Shown: in pieces, positions 42,814-49,570 of the stretch
Layout: each line of letters opens with the position of its first letter
Position numbering within the stretch: the first letter of the stretch is position 1
The notes under the pieces: generated by a model
Database searches by the model: none
What the model was told of the DNA's origin: nothing
Seen by the model: the letters and a program-made list of their open reading frames with translations, nothing else
Program-made: the position numbers and the translations under genes
Sequence record: PZ445134.1
From: a phage
Reading direction: 5' to 3' (one strand)
Length of the DNA: 64,000 nt

Positions 42814-42831
42814 AAGCTCCCGAAGGAGCTT
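42814..42831 (-). terminator. hairpin after gene 39
   Basis: AAGCTCCCGAAGGAGCTT overlapping the gp39 stop codon. Confidence 0.45.
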
Positions 42832-44647
42832 AGGACATCCATTCTTTACGAAGTTCTGAATCGTCACCCAACAACATTTCAAAGAGTTCTTTCCAATTTT
42901 CAGGAAGTTTAACTACGTCGTACACAGGGTTCTGAATCATTTCACGATATTCTGACTTTTCAAGGGAGCCTAATCCCTTGATGTATCGAATACTATGCTT
43001 AGGAAGTGTATCTTTAGCTTCTTCATACTCAGCTACAGTATAAAACCATTTTTGAGTTTTGCCAATTTGTGCAATAATTACAGGCGTTTTAACAAAGCGA
43101 ATACGTCCTTGTTCAAACAATTCGGGCCAATTACTAAAGAAAGCAAGCAAAGCTGGATAAATACTTCCAAGACCGTCATGATCGGCATCGGTCATAATTG
43201 CAATATTACGATAGTTTGTATTCTCTGCCTTTTCACCAAGAATAAGACCTGTGATAGCACAGATATCAAAGAGCTCTTTATTCTTCATCATATCAGCATA
43301 TGACATACCCCAGCTATTCATCACCTTACCACGTAATGGGAATCCGCCGTGTAGTTCACGGTCACGAACATCAATGAGATAACCAATTGCAGAATCACCT
43401 TCTGTTAAGAACAATGTCGTATCTGCATCTTTACCACATTGGTTAGCTTTAATATGTTTATGAACCTTAGCTTTAGTTGCCTTTTTAGCTGCTTTAGTTT
43501 CTGCAGCCTTTTCTGCTGCCAATTTACGAGCTAATGCTGCTTCAACAATAGGCATAATCAAGGCTTCGTTTTTAAGAAGCGCCTGAGCAATTTTCTTAGC
43601 ATCTAATTGGATATGATTACGAATATCACCATACGTTGACGTTAAACGTTCTTTAGTCTGAGAATCAAAACGCATGTTGCTCATGTCTCTAATAAACATC
43701 AACATTGTGAGACATTCTTTAACACGAGCTTTAGTGACTTCAATACCCTTATATTTCTTTTTAATACCCGGCAAAAGATGTTCGCAGATATCATCCATTA
43801 CACATTCAACATGATGACCACCATTTTTAGTATGGATGTTATTCACATAAGTTAAATGACGAAAGCCATCTGGTGATGTTGTGAATGCTATAGAGACTTT
43901 ATCATTTTCTTGAATGATGTTATCTTCGCCAAATTGTTTAGCAAATCGTTTAAAATTACCATCAACCTTTTTACCATTAAATGTGAACTTGATATCAGGA
44001 TAAACGACTGCCAATGTTTGAAGTCGGTCTAAAGTAATATCTAAATAAATTTGAGATAAATTATGTTCTTCAAATGAAGAGAAATCAGGAGTGAAGATTA
44101 CTTTAGTGCCTTTACCTTTAGATTTCTTAGATGACCATGATTTGTTTTCCATTCCGTTTGAACAGTTAACAGTGATTTCATTTTCGCCATCTGACGTGAT
44201 GCCTGTAAACAACGTAGAGAAGATATTAGTTAAACTACTCCCGACGCCGTTCATACCACCGGTTTTACGTTCAGAGTCATCACCAAAGTTACCACCGGCC
44301 TTTGGAATAGTCCAGGCTGCTACAGGCCCAGGAATTTGTTCACCATTTTGGTCGGTGACCATTGCTTGAGGAATACCACGTCCGTTATCTTCAACAGAAA
44401 CTTGATTATTTTTAATTTGCACATCAATTTTATTTGCAAACTTAAATGATGTACGAATAGCTTCATCAACCGAGTTGTCAATAATCTCATCGATTAATTT
44501 AACCAGACCAGGAACATATTCAACTTGTTGATATTTACCAAACAAAAAACGCTCGTGGGCTTCTTTGGCCGAAGAACCAATATACATGCCACTTCGTTTC
44601 TTAATATGTTCTACATCTGACAATACCTTAATTTCATTTTTAATCAT
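42830..44647 (-). CDS. 39: DNA topoisomerase II large (ATPase) subunit, single 605-aa gp39 with no separate gene 60
   Basis: GyrB-type ATPase and TOPRIM content in one uninterrupted ORF; GAGGAGAC SD. Confidence 0.92.
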   Translation of the reverse strand: MIKNEIKVLSDVEHIKKRSGMYIGSSAKEAHERFLFGKYQQVEYVPGLVKLIDEIIDNSVDEAIRTSFKFANKIDVQIKNNQVSVEDNGRGIPQAMVTDQNGEQIPGPVAAWTIPKAGGNFGDDSERKTGGMNGVGSSLTNIFSTLFTGITSDGENEITVNCSNGMENKSWSSKKSKGKGTKVIFTPDFSSFEEHNLSQIYLDITLDRLQTLAVVYPDIKFTFNGKKVDGNFKRFAKQFGEDNIIQENDKVSIAFTTSPDGFRHLTYVNNIHTKNGGHHVECVMDDICEHLLPGIKKKYKGIEVTKARVKECLTMLMFIRDMSNMRFDSQTKERLTSTYGDIRNHIQLDAKKIAQALLKNEALIMPIVEAALARKLAAEKAAETKAAKKATKAKVHKHIKANQCGKDADTTLFLTEGDSAIGYLIDVRDRELHGGFPLRGKVMNSWGMSYADMMKNKELFDICAITGLILGEKAENTNYRNIAIMTDADHDGLGSIYPALLAFFSNWPELFEQGRIRFVKTPVIIAQIGKTQKWFYTVAEYEEAKDTLPKHSIRYIKGLGSLEKSEYREMIQNPVYDVVKLPENWKELFEMLLGDDSELRKEWMS

Positions 44648-44697: not shown

Positions 44698-44712
44698 AGG
44701 GCCGAAGCCCTT
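44697..44712 (-). terminator. hairpin after the 148-aa gene
   Basis: AAGGGCCGAAGCCCTT. Confidence 0.45.
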
Positions 44713-45157
44713 ATTTAAATTTAATTTTCTGAAGTGCATCAATTGCAGCCAAACGCCCTTGTTCACTTTTAACTGTAATGACCACATCACCTGATACGAT
44801 CACCGAACCATCAACAAATTCTACAGAGCCTTTTTTGAAATCGACAGATGTATCTGGTTCCGGAACTTCTTCAAAGAATTTAAATTCTGCACCATAAATC
44901 AGAATATCACCTTGCATACTATGAATAGTTCGGCCATAATCGCCTACGGCTTCTACAGCAATCACTGAAACACCATGACCAATCATCTCTTCCACAATAA
45001 AATCTTTGGACAATAAAGTAGTATGCAGATTAGTATTAAGACGTTTACCAGTCGTATTAAGAATTCTCAAGAAATTATCTTCCTGTCCTTTGATAATACG
45101 ATATTTCTTACCAACTTCAAAACCTTTAAAATCTTTAAAAGCCGTATTAAAAGCCAT
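44711..45157 (-). CDS. hypothetical protein, 148 aa
   Basis: Track ORF; hairpin directly after its stop. Confidence 0.55.
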   Translation of the reverse strand: MAFNTAFKDFKGFEVGKKYRIIKGQEDNFLRILNTTGKRLNTNLHTTLLSKDFIVEEMIGHGVSVIAVEAVGDYGRTIHSMQGDILIYGAEFKFFEEVPEPDTSVDFKKGSVEFVDGSVIVSGDVVITVKSEQGRLAAIDALQKIKFK

Positions 45158-45341: not shown

Positions 45342-45752
45342 TTATTCCTTAAAGTGAGCTTTCAACATTTGATACAAAGACCATGCCTGGTCGTTATTTT
45401 TGATAGTAATCGTCATCGCAGGAAATTCAGACAATTCGTCAAGTTCATCAGAATCTTGCTCTTCAGACGCTTGATATGGATTTTCAACTTCGTCAAAGAA
45501 CTCTGCTTCATTCGTGGAGAGCCAGATAAAGTTTTCATCAAGGATATCACCGCCTGTCGCGTATCCAACCGTGCCAGTAGATGTCACAATTTTAGTAGGA
45601 CGGCCAAGATGGTCAACATCTAATACTTTAAATGGTTCCATGCCAAGACGTCGTGCATAAATCCCATTATCAGTGTGGTCTTTAATAAACTCTTCTCGGG
45701 CACGTTTATCTATAAATTGGTACCATGAGTTAACGCGGAATTTATTAGCCAT
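45342..45752 (-). CDS. hypothetical acidic protein, 136 aa (goF position)
   Basis: Track ORF trimmed to ATG 45752 (MANKF...), overlapping the upstream stop (TAATG). Confidence 0.5.
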
Positions 45753-45979
45753 TAGTAAGTTTCCTTCCAATAAGTTGTACCGTTTTCAGTGATTTCACGG
45801 AAGATACCATAGATAGGCATTTCATCACCGAGTTTTTCGTAAACGTAAACCACTTCGGTGTAGCATAAAAATTCGGTCCAGTTTTTCTGTACAACAACTA
45901 AATCAGGATTAAACAGAACATCTTCAAACTCATCGATGTTTGAATCGGTAGTTACGTTTTTAATGATTTGACGTTTCAT
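45752..45979 (-). CDS. hypothetical protein, 75 aa (cef position)
   Basis: Track ORF trimmed to ATG 45979 with GAGGAG SD; longer track start lies inside promoter 46008-46036. Confidence 0.5.
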
Positions 45980-46007
45980 AATATTCTCCTCTTGTTTTGA
46001 TAGGTCT

Positions 46008-46036
46008 ATAGTATCATAGACCATAGTTGTTGTACA
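46008..46036 (-). promoter_or_regulatory. T4-type early promoter
   Basis: minus strand TGTACA, 17 nt, TACTAT within palindrome GGTCTATAGTATCATAGACC. Confidence 0.45.
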
Positions 46037-46561
46037 TCATTTTAGCAAAATAAAATCAACTTGTTCTGCCAATGAACGTCTAAACATTAATTGACAACTT
46101 CCGAGGATGAAATCAGGTGCTTCATAGACCGCGATGTAGTATCCTTTAGCTTTCAAGAGTTCAACATCCACCTGGTCATCAAACCATGCATAAACCGCAT
46201 CAACACTTTCAAATCCAAAATAGAACCCTTTAGCCCAATCTTCACTCAATTCAAATGTGTGCTCAATTCTATAGTATCTTAAGATATTTTGTTCAAGGAG
46301 TTTGTCTTCGTTTACTGTAGGACGATTAGGGACATTATAGTTGTCGCCGTGATGGTAGAAGTTACCTGAGAGTATTCCATGCTTATCAAGGAACTCCCAT
46401 GTTTCTTCAGAGTTGTCGGTGCCCGACCAACCGTATGGCGAGCGAGGTTCTTTATTCCAAGAGGTTTCCCAAATTCTGACGGCTTTACCGTCTTCGATAG
46501 CAATTCCTGGCAATGATTCACATTGAGTACAAAAACTACGTTCTACGCGGTAAACTAACAT
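46037..46561 (-). CDS. hypothetical protein, 174 aa
   Basis: Track ORF; GAGGAGAATAAT SD; promoter 46588-46616. Confidence 0.55.
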   Translation of the reverse strand: MLVYRVERSFCTQCESLPGIAIEDGKAVRIWETSWNKEPRSPYGWSGTDNSEETWEFLDKHGILSGNFYHHGDNYNVPNRPTVNEDKLLEQNILRYYRIEHTFELSEDWAKGFYFGFESVDAVYAWFDDQVDVELLKAKGYYIAVYEAPDFILGSCQLMFRRSLAEQVDFILLK

Positions 46562-46587
46562 ATTATTCTCCTCTGGTTGATGTGGTT

Positions 46588-46616
46588 ATAATATCAAAAC
46601 CAGAGGAGAAGTAAAC
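46588..46616 (-). promoter_or_regulatory. T4-type early promoter
   Basis: minus strand GTTTAC, 17 nt, TATTAT, flanked by 11-bp inverted repeat CTCCTCTGGTT/AACCAGAGGAG. Confidence 0.55.
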
Positions 46617-46620
46617 AACT

Positions 46621-47040
46621 TTATGCAAAAGACGCTGGACAATATTTTTTGATTTGGAACTCAGGAACTACCATGAACTGACCAGCGAAAACGATGTTAT
46701 AAAGCTTAACACCATCTTCTACCCAACGGTCGCTAATAAATCCGGCGATTTGCTTAGTTTTCCATGGAGACCCATCAGTTGCAGCAGCAATAGTAAATTC
46801 ATGGTCTTTTACAACTAAAACTGATCTGCATAGTCCCCATTTGAACGCTTTTTCTTCTGGTTCAATGAATTGGCTTTTAACATAACCAATATTACCATCG
46901 GCGTCACGAACTTTAACTTCGTTACGTCCAAAAACCGGATCACTCACAGAAAGAACTTCAACCAACTTCCCGGCAACTTTAGAGCGAGAAGCAACAGATA
47001 CATATACGTAATCACCTGTAGAGAGATTTACAATATTCAT
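46621..47040 (-). CDS. hypothetical protein, 139 aa, paralogue of adjacent 151-aa ORF
   Basis: Shares SRSK.AG.LVEV, FKW.LC, GFISD.WVEDG.KLYNIVF.G.F.VV blocks with 47050-47505. Confidence 0.55.
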   Translation of the reverse strand: MNIVNLSTGDYVYVSVASRSKVAGKLVEVLSVSDPVFGRNEVKVRDADGNIGYVKSQFIEPEEKAFKWGLCRSVLVVKDHEFTIAAATDGSPWKTKQIAGFISDRWVEDGVKLYNIVFAGQFMVVPEFQIKKYCPASFA

Positions 47041-47049
47041 AATAATTCC

Positions 47050-47505
47050 TTAAGCTTTACGAGGAGACACATAGCGAGTGATTTCAGATTCTTTAACAAC
47101 TCGGAAGTCACCTAAGAATACGATATTGTATAACTTTTCACCATCTTCAACCCATTGGTCACTAATGAAGCCACACATAGTATCAGTTTTGCTTGGATAA
47201 CCATATTCGTCGATGAAGTCAAATTCTTTATCAGTCTGGAATTCAACACCTTTACACAAGGCCCATTTGAACTGTACATTAGGCTCATTGGAAGCAGAAT
47301 GAGCGCTCACAGGATTTTCCAAGAATTTAGGACTTACATAAGCGAACTGAACATCTTTTTGCCCAAAGTTATAAATGATTCGAACTTTAACTTCTTTAAT
47401 GCGTCCCATGCCATTTGTGCGAAGTCCCACCACTTCAACCAATCGTCCTGCAGCTTTAGAACGAGATACAGGCGATACATACTTAATTTCACCAATAGTA
47501 ATCAT
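47050..47505 (-). CDS. hypothetical protein, 151 aa, paralogue of adjacent 139-aa ORF
   Basis: See 46621-47040; promoter 47535-47564. Confidence 0.55.
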   Translation of the reverse strand: MITIGEIKYVSPVSRSKAAGRLVEVVGLRTNGMGRIKEVKVRIIYNFGQKDVQFAYVSPKFLENPVSAHSASNEPNVQFKWALCKGVEFQTDKEFDFIDEYGYPSKTDTMCGFISDQWVEDGEKLYNIVFLGDFRVVKESEITRYVSPRKA

Positions 47506-47534
47506 AATTTCTCTCTCTTTGTTAAATTGAATTT

Positions 47535-47564
47535 ATTATACTCCAACCATCCTTGGTTGTAAAC
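47535..47564 (-). promoter_or_regulatory. T4-type early promoter
   Basis: minus strand GTTTAC, 18 nt, TATAAT. Confidence 0.6.
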
Positions 47565-47569
47565 TGATT

Positions 47570-48247
47570 TTATCGCTGTTTTACACTTAACGGGTCAGGA
47601 TTCTCAGGGACATCTTCAAGGCCAAGCGCATAACGCTGAGCATATTTTAACATCAAAATATCTTTAGCACAATCATGAATACTATCATGGGCAATGAATC
47701 CTTTTAACGTACCTATCGGTAATGGACACATACTTAATCCTCGTGTCAACGAGTAAGCTTCGATTGCCGTACGAATATCGCGTTGAGCCCAGAATTTAAC
47801 CGGTTCTAATTTATCAGTATCAATCTCTGGTTCAGGAACACCTTCATCACGATAGAGATCACGAATCAAATCGACCAAGATCGGGAAGTCAAAGCTCATA
47901 CCACGACACCACATCTGTGATTTCCATTGGTCAACTTTATTAGCTCGGCAATAATCTAAAAAGATTTTAATGCCTTCAAGCGTAGTGACATCGTCTTCAG
48001 ACGGAGCCAAGTTTTTACGTGCTTCAGCCGATTGTTCTTTCCACCATTTCATAGTGGATTTAGCGAAAACTCGCTTCCCTTTCTGAGAAGCTAAATTAAA
48101 TTTAATTCGCTTACCTCGTTGAACAAGTTCTTCAAATGATTCAACAACTTCAGGGTCGGAATTATATGCAATAACCGCAAGGTCAATAACAGCCGCTTTT
48201 GATGTATTGCCGAATGTTTCAAAATCTATAATAACATCAGTGCTCAT
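47570..48247 (-). CDS. dexA: exonuclease A (DnaQ-like 3'-5' exonuclease)
   Basis: 225 aa; N-terminal IIDFETFG exonuclease motif; map position next to dda. Confidence 0.88.
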   Translation of the reverse strand: MSTDVIIDFETFGNTSKAAVIDLAVIAYNSDPEVVESFEELVQRGKRIKFNLASQKGKRVFAKSTMKWWKEQSAEARKNLAPSEDDVTTLEGIKIFLDYCRANKVDQWKSQMWCRGMSFDFPILVDLIRDLYRDEGVPEPEIDTDKLEPVKFWAQRDIRTAIEAYSLTRGLSMCPLPIGTLKGFIAHDSIHDCAKDILMLKYAQRYALGLEDVPENPDPLSVKQR

Positions 48248-48256
48248 AATTTTCTC

Positions 48257-49570
48257 TCAAATAAAATGGACGTCAAACCGACCACGAGTTGTGCCAACAT
48301 ACAATAACTGTTTAGCTAATTCTGAATCGGCATAATGGATACACGGTGTATAAACAAAGGCCGTGTCAACAGACATACCCTGGGCCTTATGGAAGGTTGA
48401 TACTGGTAGTGCCTTCACCTTAGTGAACATACGTTTAGCATCCCAGAATTCGTTCCATGGAGCTTTACCACCTTTATTCCAAAATTTGTATGTTTCTGCG
48501 GTTTTAGCCAAAAACAAATTGAATTTATAAAGCTCTTCTTCAGAAGAAATAACCTTTATATCTTCGCGGATGTATTCTTCATCATCCCCATATGTTTCTA
48601 CTGTAAGATTCCAGTATCGTATCATATATTCACCTGAAACACCACGTGCTTTAACGAATGTAGACGTTTCTACAGCATCTCGAATACGAACGAATTGGCC
48701 GTTATTGAAAAGCATTTCGGTCATATTTTTACCATCTAGCTTATATGTCTTAGTAAATGGTTCTTGTAGAACAATGACTTCGTCTTTAACAAATGGTTTT
48801 TCTGTTTCAAGAAGTTTTCGGCGAATAATTGAATTTAACTTGTCCACCGACTTATTTGTGAATGCCATCATTCGATTTTCGAAAAGGTCTTCAGGAGTTT
48901 TAACGACGTTAAAATAGTTCATCATATACGATTTAAGGTCTGTATATCCATGAACACCGTGCCCATCAACTACTTTATCGTAAATCCATTTGCCGTTACG
49001 AATATCAGTCGCAACATCAATAATTGGTGCATTGCTACGTTTAACTTCTGTAAGGTTGCATTGCACGAAGTCTTTGTGTGTGAAGAAAGGACTTAGATAC
49101 GCAGTTGATTCGCCTGGGTCTACCGGACGAATCTGGCATCGGTCGCCGATTCCAATTACTGTACACCATTTAGGGATACTAGCTAACATTATTTTAAACA
49201 GAGAACGGTCGCACATTGATGCTTCATCAAATAACAGTACACGACACAAGGCTAAGTCGGGAACCTTTTTCTGTTCAAACAATACGTTTTCTTCGTATGT
49301 AGTCGGGTTGATTTTAAGAATGCTATGAATAGTCGATGCTTCTTGACCTGCGAGTTTGCTTAGAACCTTTTTAGCAGCATGTGTAGGGGCTGCTAAAATA
49401 ATACCTGATTCTCCAGAAGAAATAAGGGCTTCAACGATGAATCTAGTAAGGGTTGTTTTACCTGTACCAGCAGGCCCGTTAATAGTTACGTGATGTTTCT
49501 TTTCTTTAATAGCTTTCATAACAACGTTGAAGGCGTTTTTCTGGCCTTCGGTCAAATCATCAAATGTCAT
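48257..49570 (-). CDS. dda: Dda DNA helicase (SF1B)
   Basis: 437 aa; matches recalled T4 Dda (MTFDDLTEGQKNAFN.VMKAIKEKKHHVTINGPAGTGKTTLT.FI). Confidence 0.93.
   Translation of the reverse strand: MTFDDLTEGQKNAFNVVMKAIKEKKHHVTINGPAGTGKTTLTRFIVEALISSGESGIILAAPTHAAKKVLSKLAGQEASTIHSILKINPTTYEENVLFEQKKVPDLALCRVLLFDEASMCDRSLFKIMLASIPKWCTVIGIGDRCQIRPVDPGESTAYLSPFFTHKDFVQCNLTEVKRSNAPIIDVATDIRNGKWIYDKVVDGHGVHGYTDLKSYMMNYFNVVKTPEDLFENRMMAFTNKSVDKLNSIIRRKLLETEKPFVKDEVIVLQEPFTKTYKLDGKNMTEMLFNNGQFVRIRDAVETSTFVKARGVSGEYMIRYWNLTVETYGDDEEYIREDIKVISSEEELYKFNLFLAKTAETYKFWNKGGKAPWNEFWDAKRMFTKVKALPVSTFHKAQGMSVDTAFVYTPCIHYADSELAKQLLYVGTTRGRFDVHFI

Follow-up and report, generated by a model that had tools for sequence, protein, structure and literature searches.

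An apparently old tandem pair of motB genes forms a predicted early unit and a putative mobile cassette in T4-like phages

Introduction

We asked what two adjacent, related genes in the motB region of a T4-like phage encode, how the pair arose, and why both genes are kept. MotB is one of the few early host-takeover proteins of T4 that have been linked to the host chromatin protein H-NS, and it has been studied only in T4, which has a single copy. The stretch of phage DNA analyzed here (64,000 nucleotides of record PZ445134.1, referred to as the window) contains adjacent ORFs of 151 and 139 amino acids at this locus. An earlier note on the sequence described several blocks shared by the two ORFs, proposed that they arose by duplication and divergence, assigned an early promoter to each, and left their likeness to MotB as a guess.

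The existence of such a pair is already known. The RB69 reference record lists RB69p011 as motB and RB69p010 (139 aa) as similar to T4 MotB. RefSeq and pharokka-type annotations call both proteins "MotB-like transcriptional regulator", and Patterson-West et al. (2021, PMC7827196) mentioned the "two copies of motB" of RB69 in one sentence. The additions reported here are incremental: the cassette behavior of the pair, the compact form of the second copy, natural fusions of the two genes, and the loss of motB.1 by promoter-repeat recombination. Our overall reading, to which we assign a probability of about 0.8, is that the locus holds an ancient tandem motB pair, transcribed as one early unit, that encodes two-barrel DNA-coating proteins, is maintained by selection on both copies, and travels as a mobile cassette.

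Results

Family membership of the two ORFs

We confirmed that the two ORFs lie side by side on the minus strand between gene 39 and dexA (Table 1), as the earlier note had placed them. Along the direction of transcription, the window reads dda, dexA, the 151-aa gene, the 139-aa gene, a 174-aa ORF, cef, a goF homologue, a 39.2-type zinc-ribbon ORF, a 148-aa ORF, and gene 39. BLASTP with compositional adjustment aligned the two proteins with 64 identities in 145 positions (44%, 97.8 bits, E 7e-32). Each of the blocks that had been quoted (SRSK.AG.LVEV, FKW.LC, and GFISD.WVEDG.KLYNIVF.G.F.VV) appears in this alignment, and the similarity is far beyond chance. The copies diverge mostly in the middle of the protein, also as described before: in the 139-aa copy, an N-domain hairpin is about 6 residues shorter and the interdomain linker of roughly 10-20 residues is missing. 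At the nucleotide level, the longest identical run is 14 nt. We built a profile from family members and searched all six frames of the window. Only the two ORFs of the pair matched (E 4e-54 and 5e-50); no additional family copy was found in the six frames, where the third-best match had an E-value of 4.2. Short ORF length is the only point in favor of a chance or compositional likeness between unrelated small ORFs, and that reading is already refuted by an E-value of 7e-32 obtained despite compositional adjustment, by the match of both ORFs to a single curated Pfam model far above its cut-off, and by a profile search that picks exactly these two ORFs.

The Pfam model is PF17613, which has a gathering threshold of 25 bits. 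The 151-aa copy scored 120.2 bits and the 139-aa copy 75.8 bits, and both copies also matched phrog_1671. In an alignment of 13 sequences that included T4-, RB10-, and VR20-type MotB, the invariant columns spelled SRSKxAG and EVKVR in the N-domain and FKW and DxWVEDGxKLYNxVFxG in the C-domain. Identities of the 151-aa protein are 47% with T4 MotB, 76% with RB10 MotB, and 86.8% with its RB69 counterpart; those of the 139-aa protein are 38% with T4 MotB and 91% with the 139-aa protein of RB10. By synteny, the pair sits in the dexA-cef segment of the early region between gene 39 and dda, behind a match to the early promoter consensus, which confirms the locus as the T4 motB region. These results indicate that both ORFs are true paralogues within the MotB family, so the guess that they are MotB-like was correct. 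The identities to the T4 and RB10 proteins further identify the upstream 151-aa gene as orthologous to T4 motB and the downstream 139-aa gene as a second, diverged copy.

We considered two other T4 genes as counterparts of the second copy and rejected both. T4 motB.2 matches the neighboring 174-aa ORF instead (34% identity). T4 motB.1 matches a 164-aa gene of O157 typing phage 3 (O157tp3) and RB69 that is not in the window. When either ORF of the pair was compared with T4 MotB.1 or the 164-aa O157tp3 protein by BLASTP, just the C-terminal 30-40 residues or so aligned. The N-domains of the pair bear the SRSK motif of MotB and not the N-terminal LSm/FeoA-like barrel of T4 MotB.1, GoF, and Frd.2. 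No MotB.1-type gene was found in the window.

Table 1. Features of the motB locus in the window, and fused single-copy chimeras from other assemblies
Feature	Positions	Strand	Details
dexA	47570-48247		
Promoter of the pair, single early-type sigma-70 (predicted)	47535-47563	minus	GTTTACA...17 nt...TATAAT, 11/12 consensus
Spacer between dexA and motB	47506-47569	minus	Exact hybrid (see text)
motB orthologue, 151 aa	47050-47505	minus	PF17613 1e-34, profile positions 2-157 of 162; phrog_1671 1.5e-61
Junction of the 151-aa and 139-aa genes	47041-47052	minus	TAA stop overlapping AAGGA Shine-Dalgarno, 9-nt spacer, then ATG
Compact motB paralogue, 139 aa	46621-47040	minus	PF17613 4.5e-21; phrog_1671 3.7e-51
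Predicted promoter of the 174-aa gene	46615-46588	minus	GTTTAC...TATTAT
Downstream boundary hairpin (predicted)	46562-46620	minus	CUCCUCUGGUU / AACCAGAGGAG, encloses the promoter of the next gene
174-aa ORF	46037-46561	minus	T4 motB.2 homologue; PF26820 in relatives
cef, mechanical ORF	45752-46024	minus	90 aa from the first ATG
goF homologue	45342-45770	minus	phrog_622 8.6e-39
148-aa ORF	44711-45157	minus	phrog_622 4.6e-22
Gene 39	42830-44647		
Chimera P0028			151-type N-domain and linker joined to 139-type C-domain at FKW; overlap 10 nt; 3.8-kb contig
Chimera P0029			T4-type N-half joined to RB10-type 139 C-domain; overlap 14 nt; contigs from four read sets
Chimera P0031			Crossover in the WVEDG block; overlap 58 nt; one 1.1-kb contig

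Transcriptional layout of the pair

A consensus scan of positions 45900-48400 ranked the site upstream of the 151-aa gene (TTTACA-17-TATAAT) first, and a motif search recovered its GTTTAC and TATAAT elements. We found no separate promoter for the 139-aa gene between 47505 and 47040, using a sigma-70 scan and searches for the T4 late motif TATAAATA, a MotA box with a minus-10 element, GTTTAC, and TATAAT. A second predicted promoter lies 3' of the 139-aa gene, reads TTTACT-16-TATTAT with a TG extension in the consensus scan, and serves the 174-aa motB.2 homologue. This is probably the second promoter that the earlier note had in mind. Its claim that each gene of the pair has its own early promoter is therefore contradicted: one promoter precedes the pair, the gap between the genes is 9 nt, and the second site serves the gene downstream. 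The junction sequence, GCTTAAGGAATTATTATG, is the same in the window and in RB10. A single promoter, a 9-nt spacer, and an AAGGA sequence over the stop codon together predict, from consensus matches, that the pair is one early operon.

The hairpin at the downstream boundary has an 11-bp stem and a folding energy of -21.7 kcal/mol (z -4.69); none of 200 shuffled sequences folded as well. The -10 element of the promoter for the 174-aa gene falls inside the hairpin loop, and the 3' arm bears the GAGGAG ribosome-binding site of that gene. Transcripts that read through from the motB pair could mask this site, whereas transcripts initiated in the loop could not.

Predicted structure and charge

We modeled both proteins with AlphaFold2 from a 26-sequence alignment. 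Each model is predicted to contain two small five-stranded barrels, in line with the two-domain plan of the MotB family. In the model of the 151-aa protein (pLDDT 87.0, pTM 0.49), a KOW-like N-terminal barrel is followed by a flexible linker (residues ~64-80, with residues 68-75 below 50 pLDDT) and a C-terminal beta-barrel that carries the GFISDQWVEDGEKLYNIVF motif. The model of the 139-aa protein (pLDDT 88.7, pTM 0.75) retains both domains, lacks the linker, and has a shorter hairpin in the N-domain. Both models agree with the published HHpred view of MotB as a KOW N-domain and a beta-barrel C-domain (PMC7827196). No PDB chain matched the sequence of the 151-aa protein at E-values up to 1. 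The higher pTM of the compact copy (0.75 vs 0.49) suggests that the linker-less form holds its barrels in a fixed mutual orientation, and the barrels of the 151-aa form are predicted to sit on a flexible tether of variable length.

The copies are much less basic than T4 MotB. Each has a net charge of +1 and a pI of 7.7, compared with +6 and 9.2 for the T4 protein. The charge is also distributed differently in the two copies, with +5 in the N-domain and -4 in the C-domain of the 151-aa protein and -1 and +2 in the corresponding domains of the 139-aa protein. DNA affinity may therefore differ from that of T4 MotB or be divided between the copies.

Distribution of the pair and its movement between genera

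We surveyed copy number in relatives by searching 50,697 phage records. Translated searches found the 139-type protein (at least 80% identity) in 208 records and the 151-type protein (at least 60% identity) in 202. A 171-nt probe for the junction matched 207 records, none of them below 90% identity. Any form of MotB was present in ~775 of the 50,697 records, and the pair occurs in ~205 of these MotB-bearing genomes, which belong to Mosigvirus and some Tequatrovirus; T4 has a single copy. The Tequatrovirus carriers include RB10, RB51, Sf23, ime09, and teqhad, and the junction TAAGGAATTATTATG is identical. The whole family amounts to 35 representatives at E-values up to 0.001 among 1.84 billion representative proteins, and it is confined to T4-like phages.

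Over the 2.3 kb that surround the pair, the window shares 95-97% identity with many Mosigvirus (RB69-like) coliphages, and the phage is itself a Mosigvirus. Comparison of the window with RB10 gave a dS of 0.53 and 0.69 for the two genes of the pair and 2.0 for dexA, and the 174-aa gene was saturated. Among Mosigvirus genomes, diversity in the pair exceeds that of its flanks several-fold. The low dS of the pair relative to dexA and the 174-aa gene, together with its high diversity within Mosigvirus, indicates that the pair has its own history and has moved between genera as a cassette.

Age of the pair and selection on its genes

We compared the two copies with each other and obtained a dN of ~0.5, a dS of 1.2-1.7, and third-position identity of 41-46%. 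Synonymous sites are near saturation, so the dN/dS ratio between the paralogues is uninformative, and we substituted comparisons among orthologues. Across nine genomes (35 pairs for each gene), the 151-type had a summed dN/dS ratio of 0.21 and the 139-type one of 0.15, similar to the 0.13 of dexA and the 0.135 of goF. The downstream copy is 139 aa long in all nine genomes, and the upstream copy ranges from 151 to 165 aa through variation in the linker. These results indicate that both copies are under purifying selection and that neither is decaying.

We constructed neighbor-joining trees with bootstrap support for the full-length proteins, the N-domain, and the C-domain. The 139-aa clade received 100% support. 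MotB proper (the 151-type, T4-type, VR20-type, and P0046 sequences) was monophyletic to the exclusion of the 139-aa clade with 72% support in the full-length tree and 88% in the N-domain tree. The C-domain tree was an unresolved star, with ~43-48% identity between allele types. Synonymous saturation and the position of the 139-aa clade outside all alleles of MotB proper argue that the duplication is old.

The same trees bear on a different origin for the second copy. The 139-aa gene might have come from another T4-like lineage as a divergent motB allele, taken up beside a resident motB through recombination during co-infection, and then have spread as part of the cassette. We regard this as a credible minority reading. 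It would account for the placement of the 139-aa N-domain, and it is consistent with the short-linker forms of MotB (142-158 aa) found in metagenome-only lineages (P0052-P0058), one of which, P0052, joins the 139-aa C-domain with weak support (38%). The region is also prone to exchange, as seen in the mosaic sequence P0032, in a gene order that varies by genus, and in recombination at promoter repeats. However, an increase in rate after duplication would yield an identical tree, and with the C-domain types roughly equidistant, these trees fit either origin. The totals of 208, 202, and 207 records nearly coincide, so their comparison does not indicate a 139-aa type that serves as the sole MotB of a phage.

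The preferred reading remains an ancient tandem pair, and a recent duplication is very improbable. Adjacent, co-oriented genes with shared blocks would most simply be read from the raw sequence as a local tandem duplication in this phage, now diverging, with one copy possibly decaying. We consider that reading already refuted by the synonymous saturation and the distribution of the pair. A dS of 1.2-1.7, with third-position identity below 50% and no identical run longer than 14 nt, argues against a recent event, as does the presence of the pair and its spacer in ~205 genomes that include the Tequatrovirus phages RB10, RB51, and Sf23. Low dN/dS ratios for both copies and the invariant length of the 139-aa protein argue against decay. 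Descent of the ~205 genomes from one recent ancestor is contradicted by the dexA dS of 2.0 between genera. Thus, the paralogy proposed in the earlier note stands, but a local and recent event does not.

Fused single-copy chimeras

Metagenome and read-archive contigs contain single-copy genes in which the C-domain of the 139-aa paralogue is fused to the N-half of one paralogue or of the T4-type allele (Table 1; loci L006 1373-1894, L007-L010, and L011 555-1073). The crossovers lie in the conserved FKW and WVEDG blocks. On its contig, P0028 is flanked by a motB.1-like gene and cef. Neither P0028 nor P0029 was found in isolate genomes among the 50,697 phage records, where their best matches were 80% and 76% identical, and a P0031-type chimera was likewise absent from these records. 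Logan assemblies use k = 31. The overlaps of 10-14 nt in P0028 and P0029 are too short for an artefact of a 31-mer assembly graph, so these two are probably real recombinants. For P0031, whose overlap is 58 nt and whose contig is 1.1 kb long, assembly could have produced the fusion.

One could speculate that the single motB gene of T4 is itself a collapsed fusion of such a pair, and the flank after the T4 motB stop codon does match the flank after the stop codon of the RB10 139-aa gene. We set this idea aside since T4 MotB is close to neither parent type (~43-48% identity in the C-domain).

Genes and remnants around the pair

In O157 typing phage 3, RB69, and many Mosigvirus, the 164-aa motB.1-type gene lies between dexA and motB. 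We compared the dexA-motB spacer of the window with two loci (L002 4490-5160 and L016 5300-5970). The spacer is an exact hybrid in which GTTTACAACCAAGGATGGTTGGAGTATAAT, the repeat upstream of motB.1, is joined to the leader that begins AAATTCAATTTAAC. In relatives that carry motB.1, this leader is the sequence downstream of the second promoter repeat. The promoter of the pair likewise combines parts of both promoter repeats found on either side of motB.1 in relatives. Because the spacer is an exact hybrid, we conclude that motB.1 was lost here through recombination between two direct promoter repeats, as in PeSL cassettes.

The motB.1 gene is disrupted in two reference phages. T4 motB.1 (119 aa; NC_000866, locus L003 3642-3850, minus strand) ends in GGWVTDQWIGRWR followed by a stop codon, and the +1 frame goes on with LEDGVELLNVVHAGEYSVVPRSAVVAILN to another stop. 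The latter sequence is the conserved C-domain, which RB10 (145 aa) and P0072 (144 aa) retain intact, so the T4 reference gene carries a frameshift within its WIEDG motif. RB69 motB.1 is also split in this motif, into a 132-aa ORF and the 29-aa ORF RB69p012, which explains the 29-aa "Category 3" peptide of Patterson-West et al. (2021).

The T4 spacer between motB and cef (170 bp; L003 2983-3154) also holds a remnant. Compared with the RB10 locus (L004 3900-4300), it retains the opening codons (MEN...) and ~17 terminal codons (ending in FAKGVDTLLKRIAPLFN and a stop) of an 89-aa ORF of RB10. Since both ends of this ORF remain and the flank after the motB stop codon matches that of the RB10 139-aa gene, we conclude that the T4 spacer carries a deletion scar. 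The 174-aa motB.2 homologue follows the motB pair in the window. In T4 and RB10, motB.2 comes directly after dexA, so Mosigvirus and Tequatrovirus order the genes of this segment differently.

Two further observations concern genes closer to gene 39. The 148-aa ORF and the goF homologue both match phrog_622, and they look like a second pair of paralogues, of the GoF/LSm-like type, that flanks the 39.2-type zinc-ribbon ORF. The mechanical cef ORF is longer than the 75 aa annotated in relatives, and the Pfam T4_Cef match begins at its residue 16. The true start of cef is probably an internal ATG near 45979.

Discussion

Functional expectations for the pair come from T4. According to two studies (PMC6070864, PMC7827196), T4 MotB binds unmodified and modified DNA tightly and without sequence specificity, co-purifies with H-NS and StpA, and is toxic when overexpressed. 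In these studies, MotB also has a dominant effect on the proV footprint of H-NS, 75 host genes are up-regulated, about one-third of them repressed by H-NS, and burst size is affected 2-fold. In the comparison of motB-amber and wild-type T4 transcriptomes given there, early and middle genes were unaffected. By homology, we assign activity of the T4 MotB type to the 151-aa protein with moderate confidence and to the 139-aa protein with lower confidence. The analysis itself establishes the paralogy, the family, the class of fold, the selection, the distribution, and the layout of promoters in the sequence; we infer DNA binding, H-NS antagonism, co-transcription in vivo, and any division of labor between the two copies.

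We propose the following model. One sigma-70 early promoter would drive the 151-aa gene and then the 139-aa gene, whose Shine-Dalgarno sequence overlaps the first stop codon. Each protein would fold into two small SH3-like beta-barrels: the N-domain, which is KOW-like, bears SRSKxAG, and the C-domain bears WVEDGxKLYNxVF. Both proteins most probably coat DNA early in infection, without sequence specificity. Coating would displace or remodel H-NS and StpA on the DNA and modestly raise burst size. The two copies may have non-redundant roles, as suggested by the fact that both are kept by selection and travel together as a cassette.

A more tentative form of this model, and one that we consider unlikely as it stands, treats the pair as a two-component unit. 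A flexibly tethered MotB and a rigid, linker-less MotB would act jointly on the same or different nucleoid proteins, for example H-NS versus StpA/Hha, or on chromatin-based defence. The two might do so as a heteromer or as complementary DNA coats, perhaps. This arrangement would explain the co-occurrence of the copies, the movement of the cassette with a near-invariant junction, and the occasional fusions that swap C-domains.

It is improbable that the proteins are sequence-specific regulators of transcription. The names "modifier of transcription" and "MotB-like transcriptional regulator" imply such a role, many records annotate them in this way, and KOW domains are found in NusG/Spt5. Against this, the T4 studies report DNA binding without detectable sequence specificity and early and middle genes that are unaffected in the motB-amber mutant (PMC6070864, PMC7827196). 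We found no helix-turn-helix or other domain for specific DNA reading in the proteins of the pair. We continue to favor nonspecific DNA coating as their probable activity.

A conserved two-gene version of motB in about one-quarter of the sequenced MotB-bearing T-even phages means that T4 is not representative. The pair also provides a natural experiment on the roles of the linker and of each barrel.

Several known systems resemble parts of this locus. PeSL cassettes were defined in RB49 and phi1, and their stem-loops proved to be transcription terminators (Arbiol et al. 2010, PMC2839356). In the window, a predicted strong early promoter and a predicted stem-loop likewise lie at the border of a gene module. 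The window differs in that the -10 element falls in the loop and the next gene has its ribosome-binding site in the 3' arm. The MotB.1 family combines an LSm-like N-domain with a MotB-type C-domain (Kim et al. 2025, PMC12152347). T4 MotB.1 shares with the pair a C-terminal module, GW(V/I)(S/T)DQW(V/I)EDG..L.N(V/I)V, but its N-domain is LSm/FeoA-like, whereas those of the pair are KOW-like with SRSK.

T4 MotB (NP_049626) belongs to the same family as the pair and has the same two-domain plan, the same SRSKAAG, EVKVR, FKW, and WVEDGxKLYNxVF motifs, the same dexA-cef neighborhood, and an early-type promoter. T4 has one copy of 162 aa, whereas the window has two that are much less basic. RB69 is a closer match: RB69p011 (motB, 151 aa) and RB69p010 (RB69ORF010c, 139 aa) are orthologues of the pair in the same order, with a 174-aa motB.2 homologue next to them. 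In the interval from dexA to motB, RB69 keeps a frameshifted motB.1 together with a 29-aa remnant ORF, whereas the window has no trace of that gene. In Tequatrovirus of the RB3 type, RB10_011 (motB) with RB10_010, RB51ncORF010c, and the "motB-like protein" of ime09 represent the same cassette with the same junction. There the order is dexA, motB.2, motB.1, motB, the 139-aa gene, the 89-aa ORF, and cef, in contrast to dexA, motB, the 139-aa gene, the motB.2-like gene, and cef in the window.
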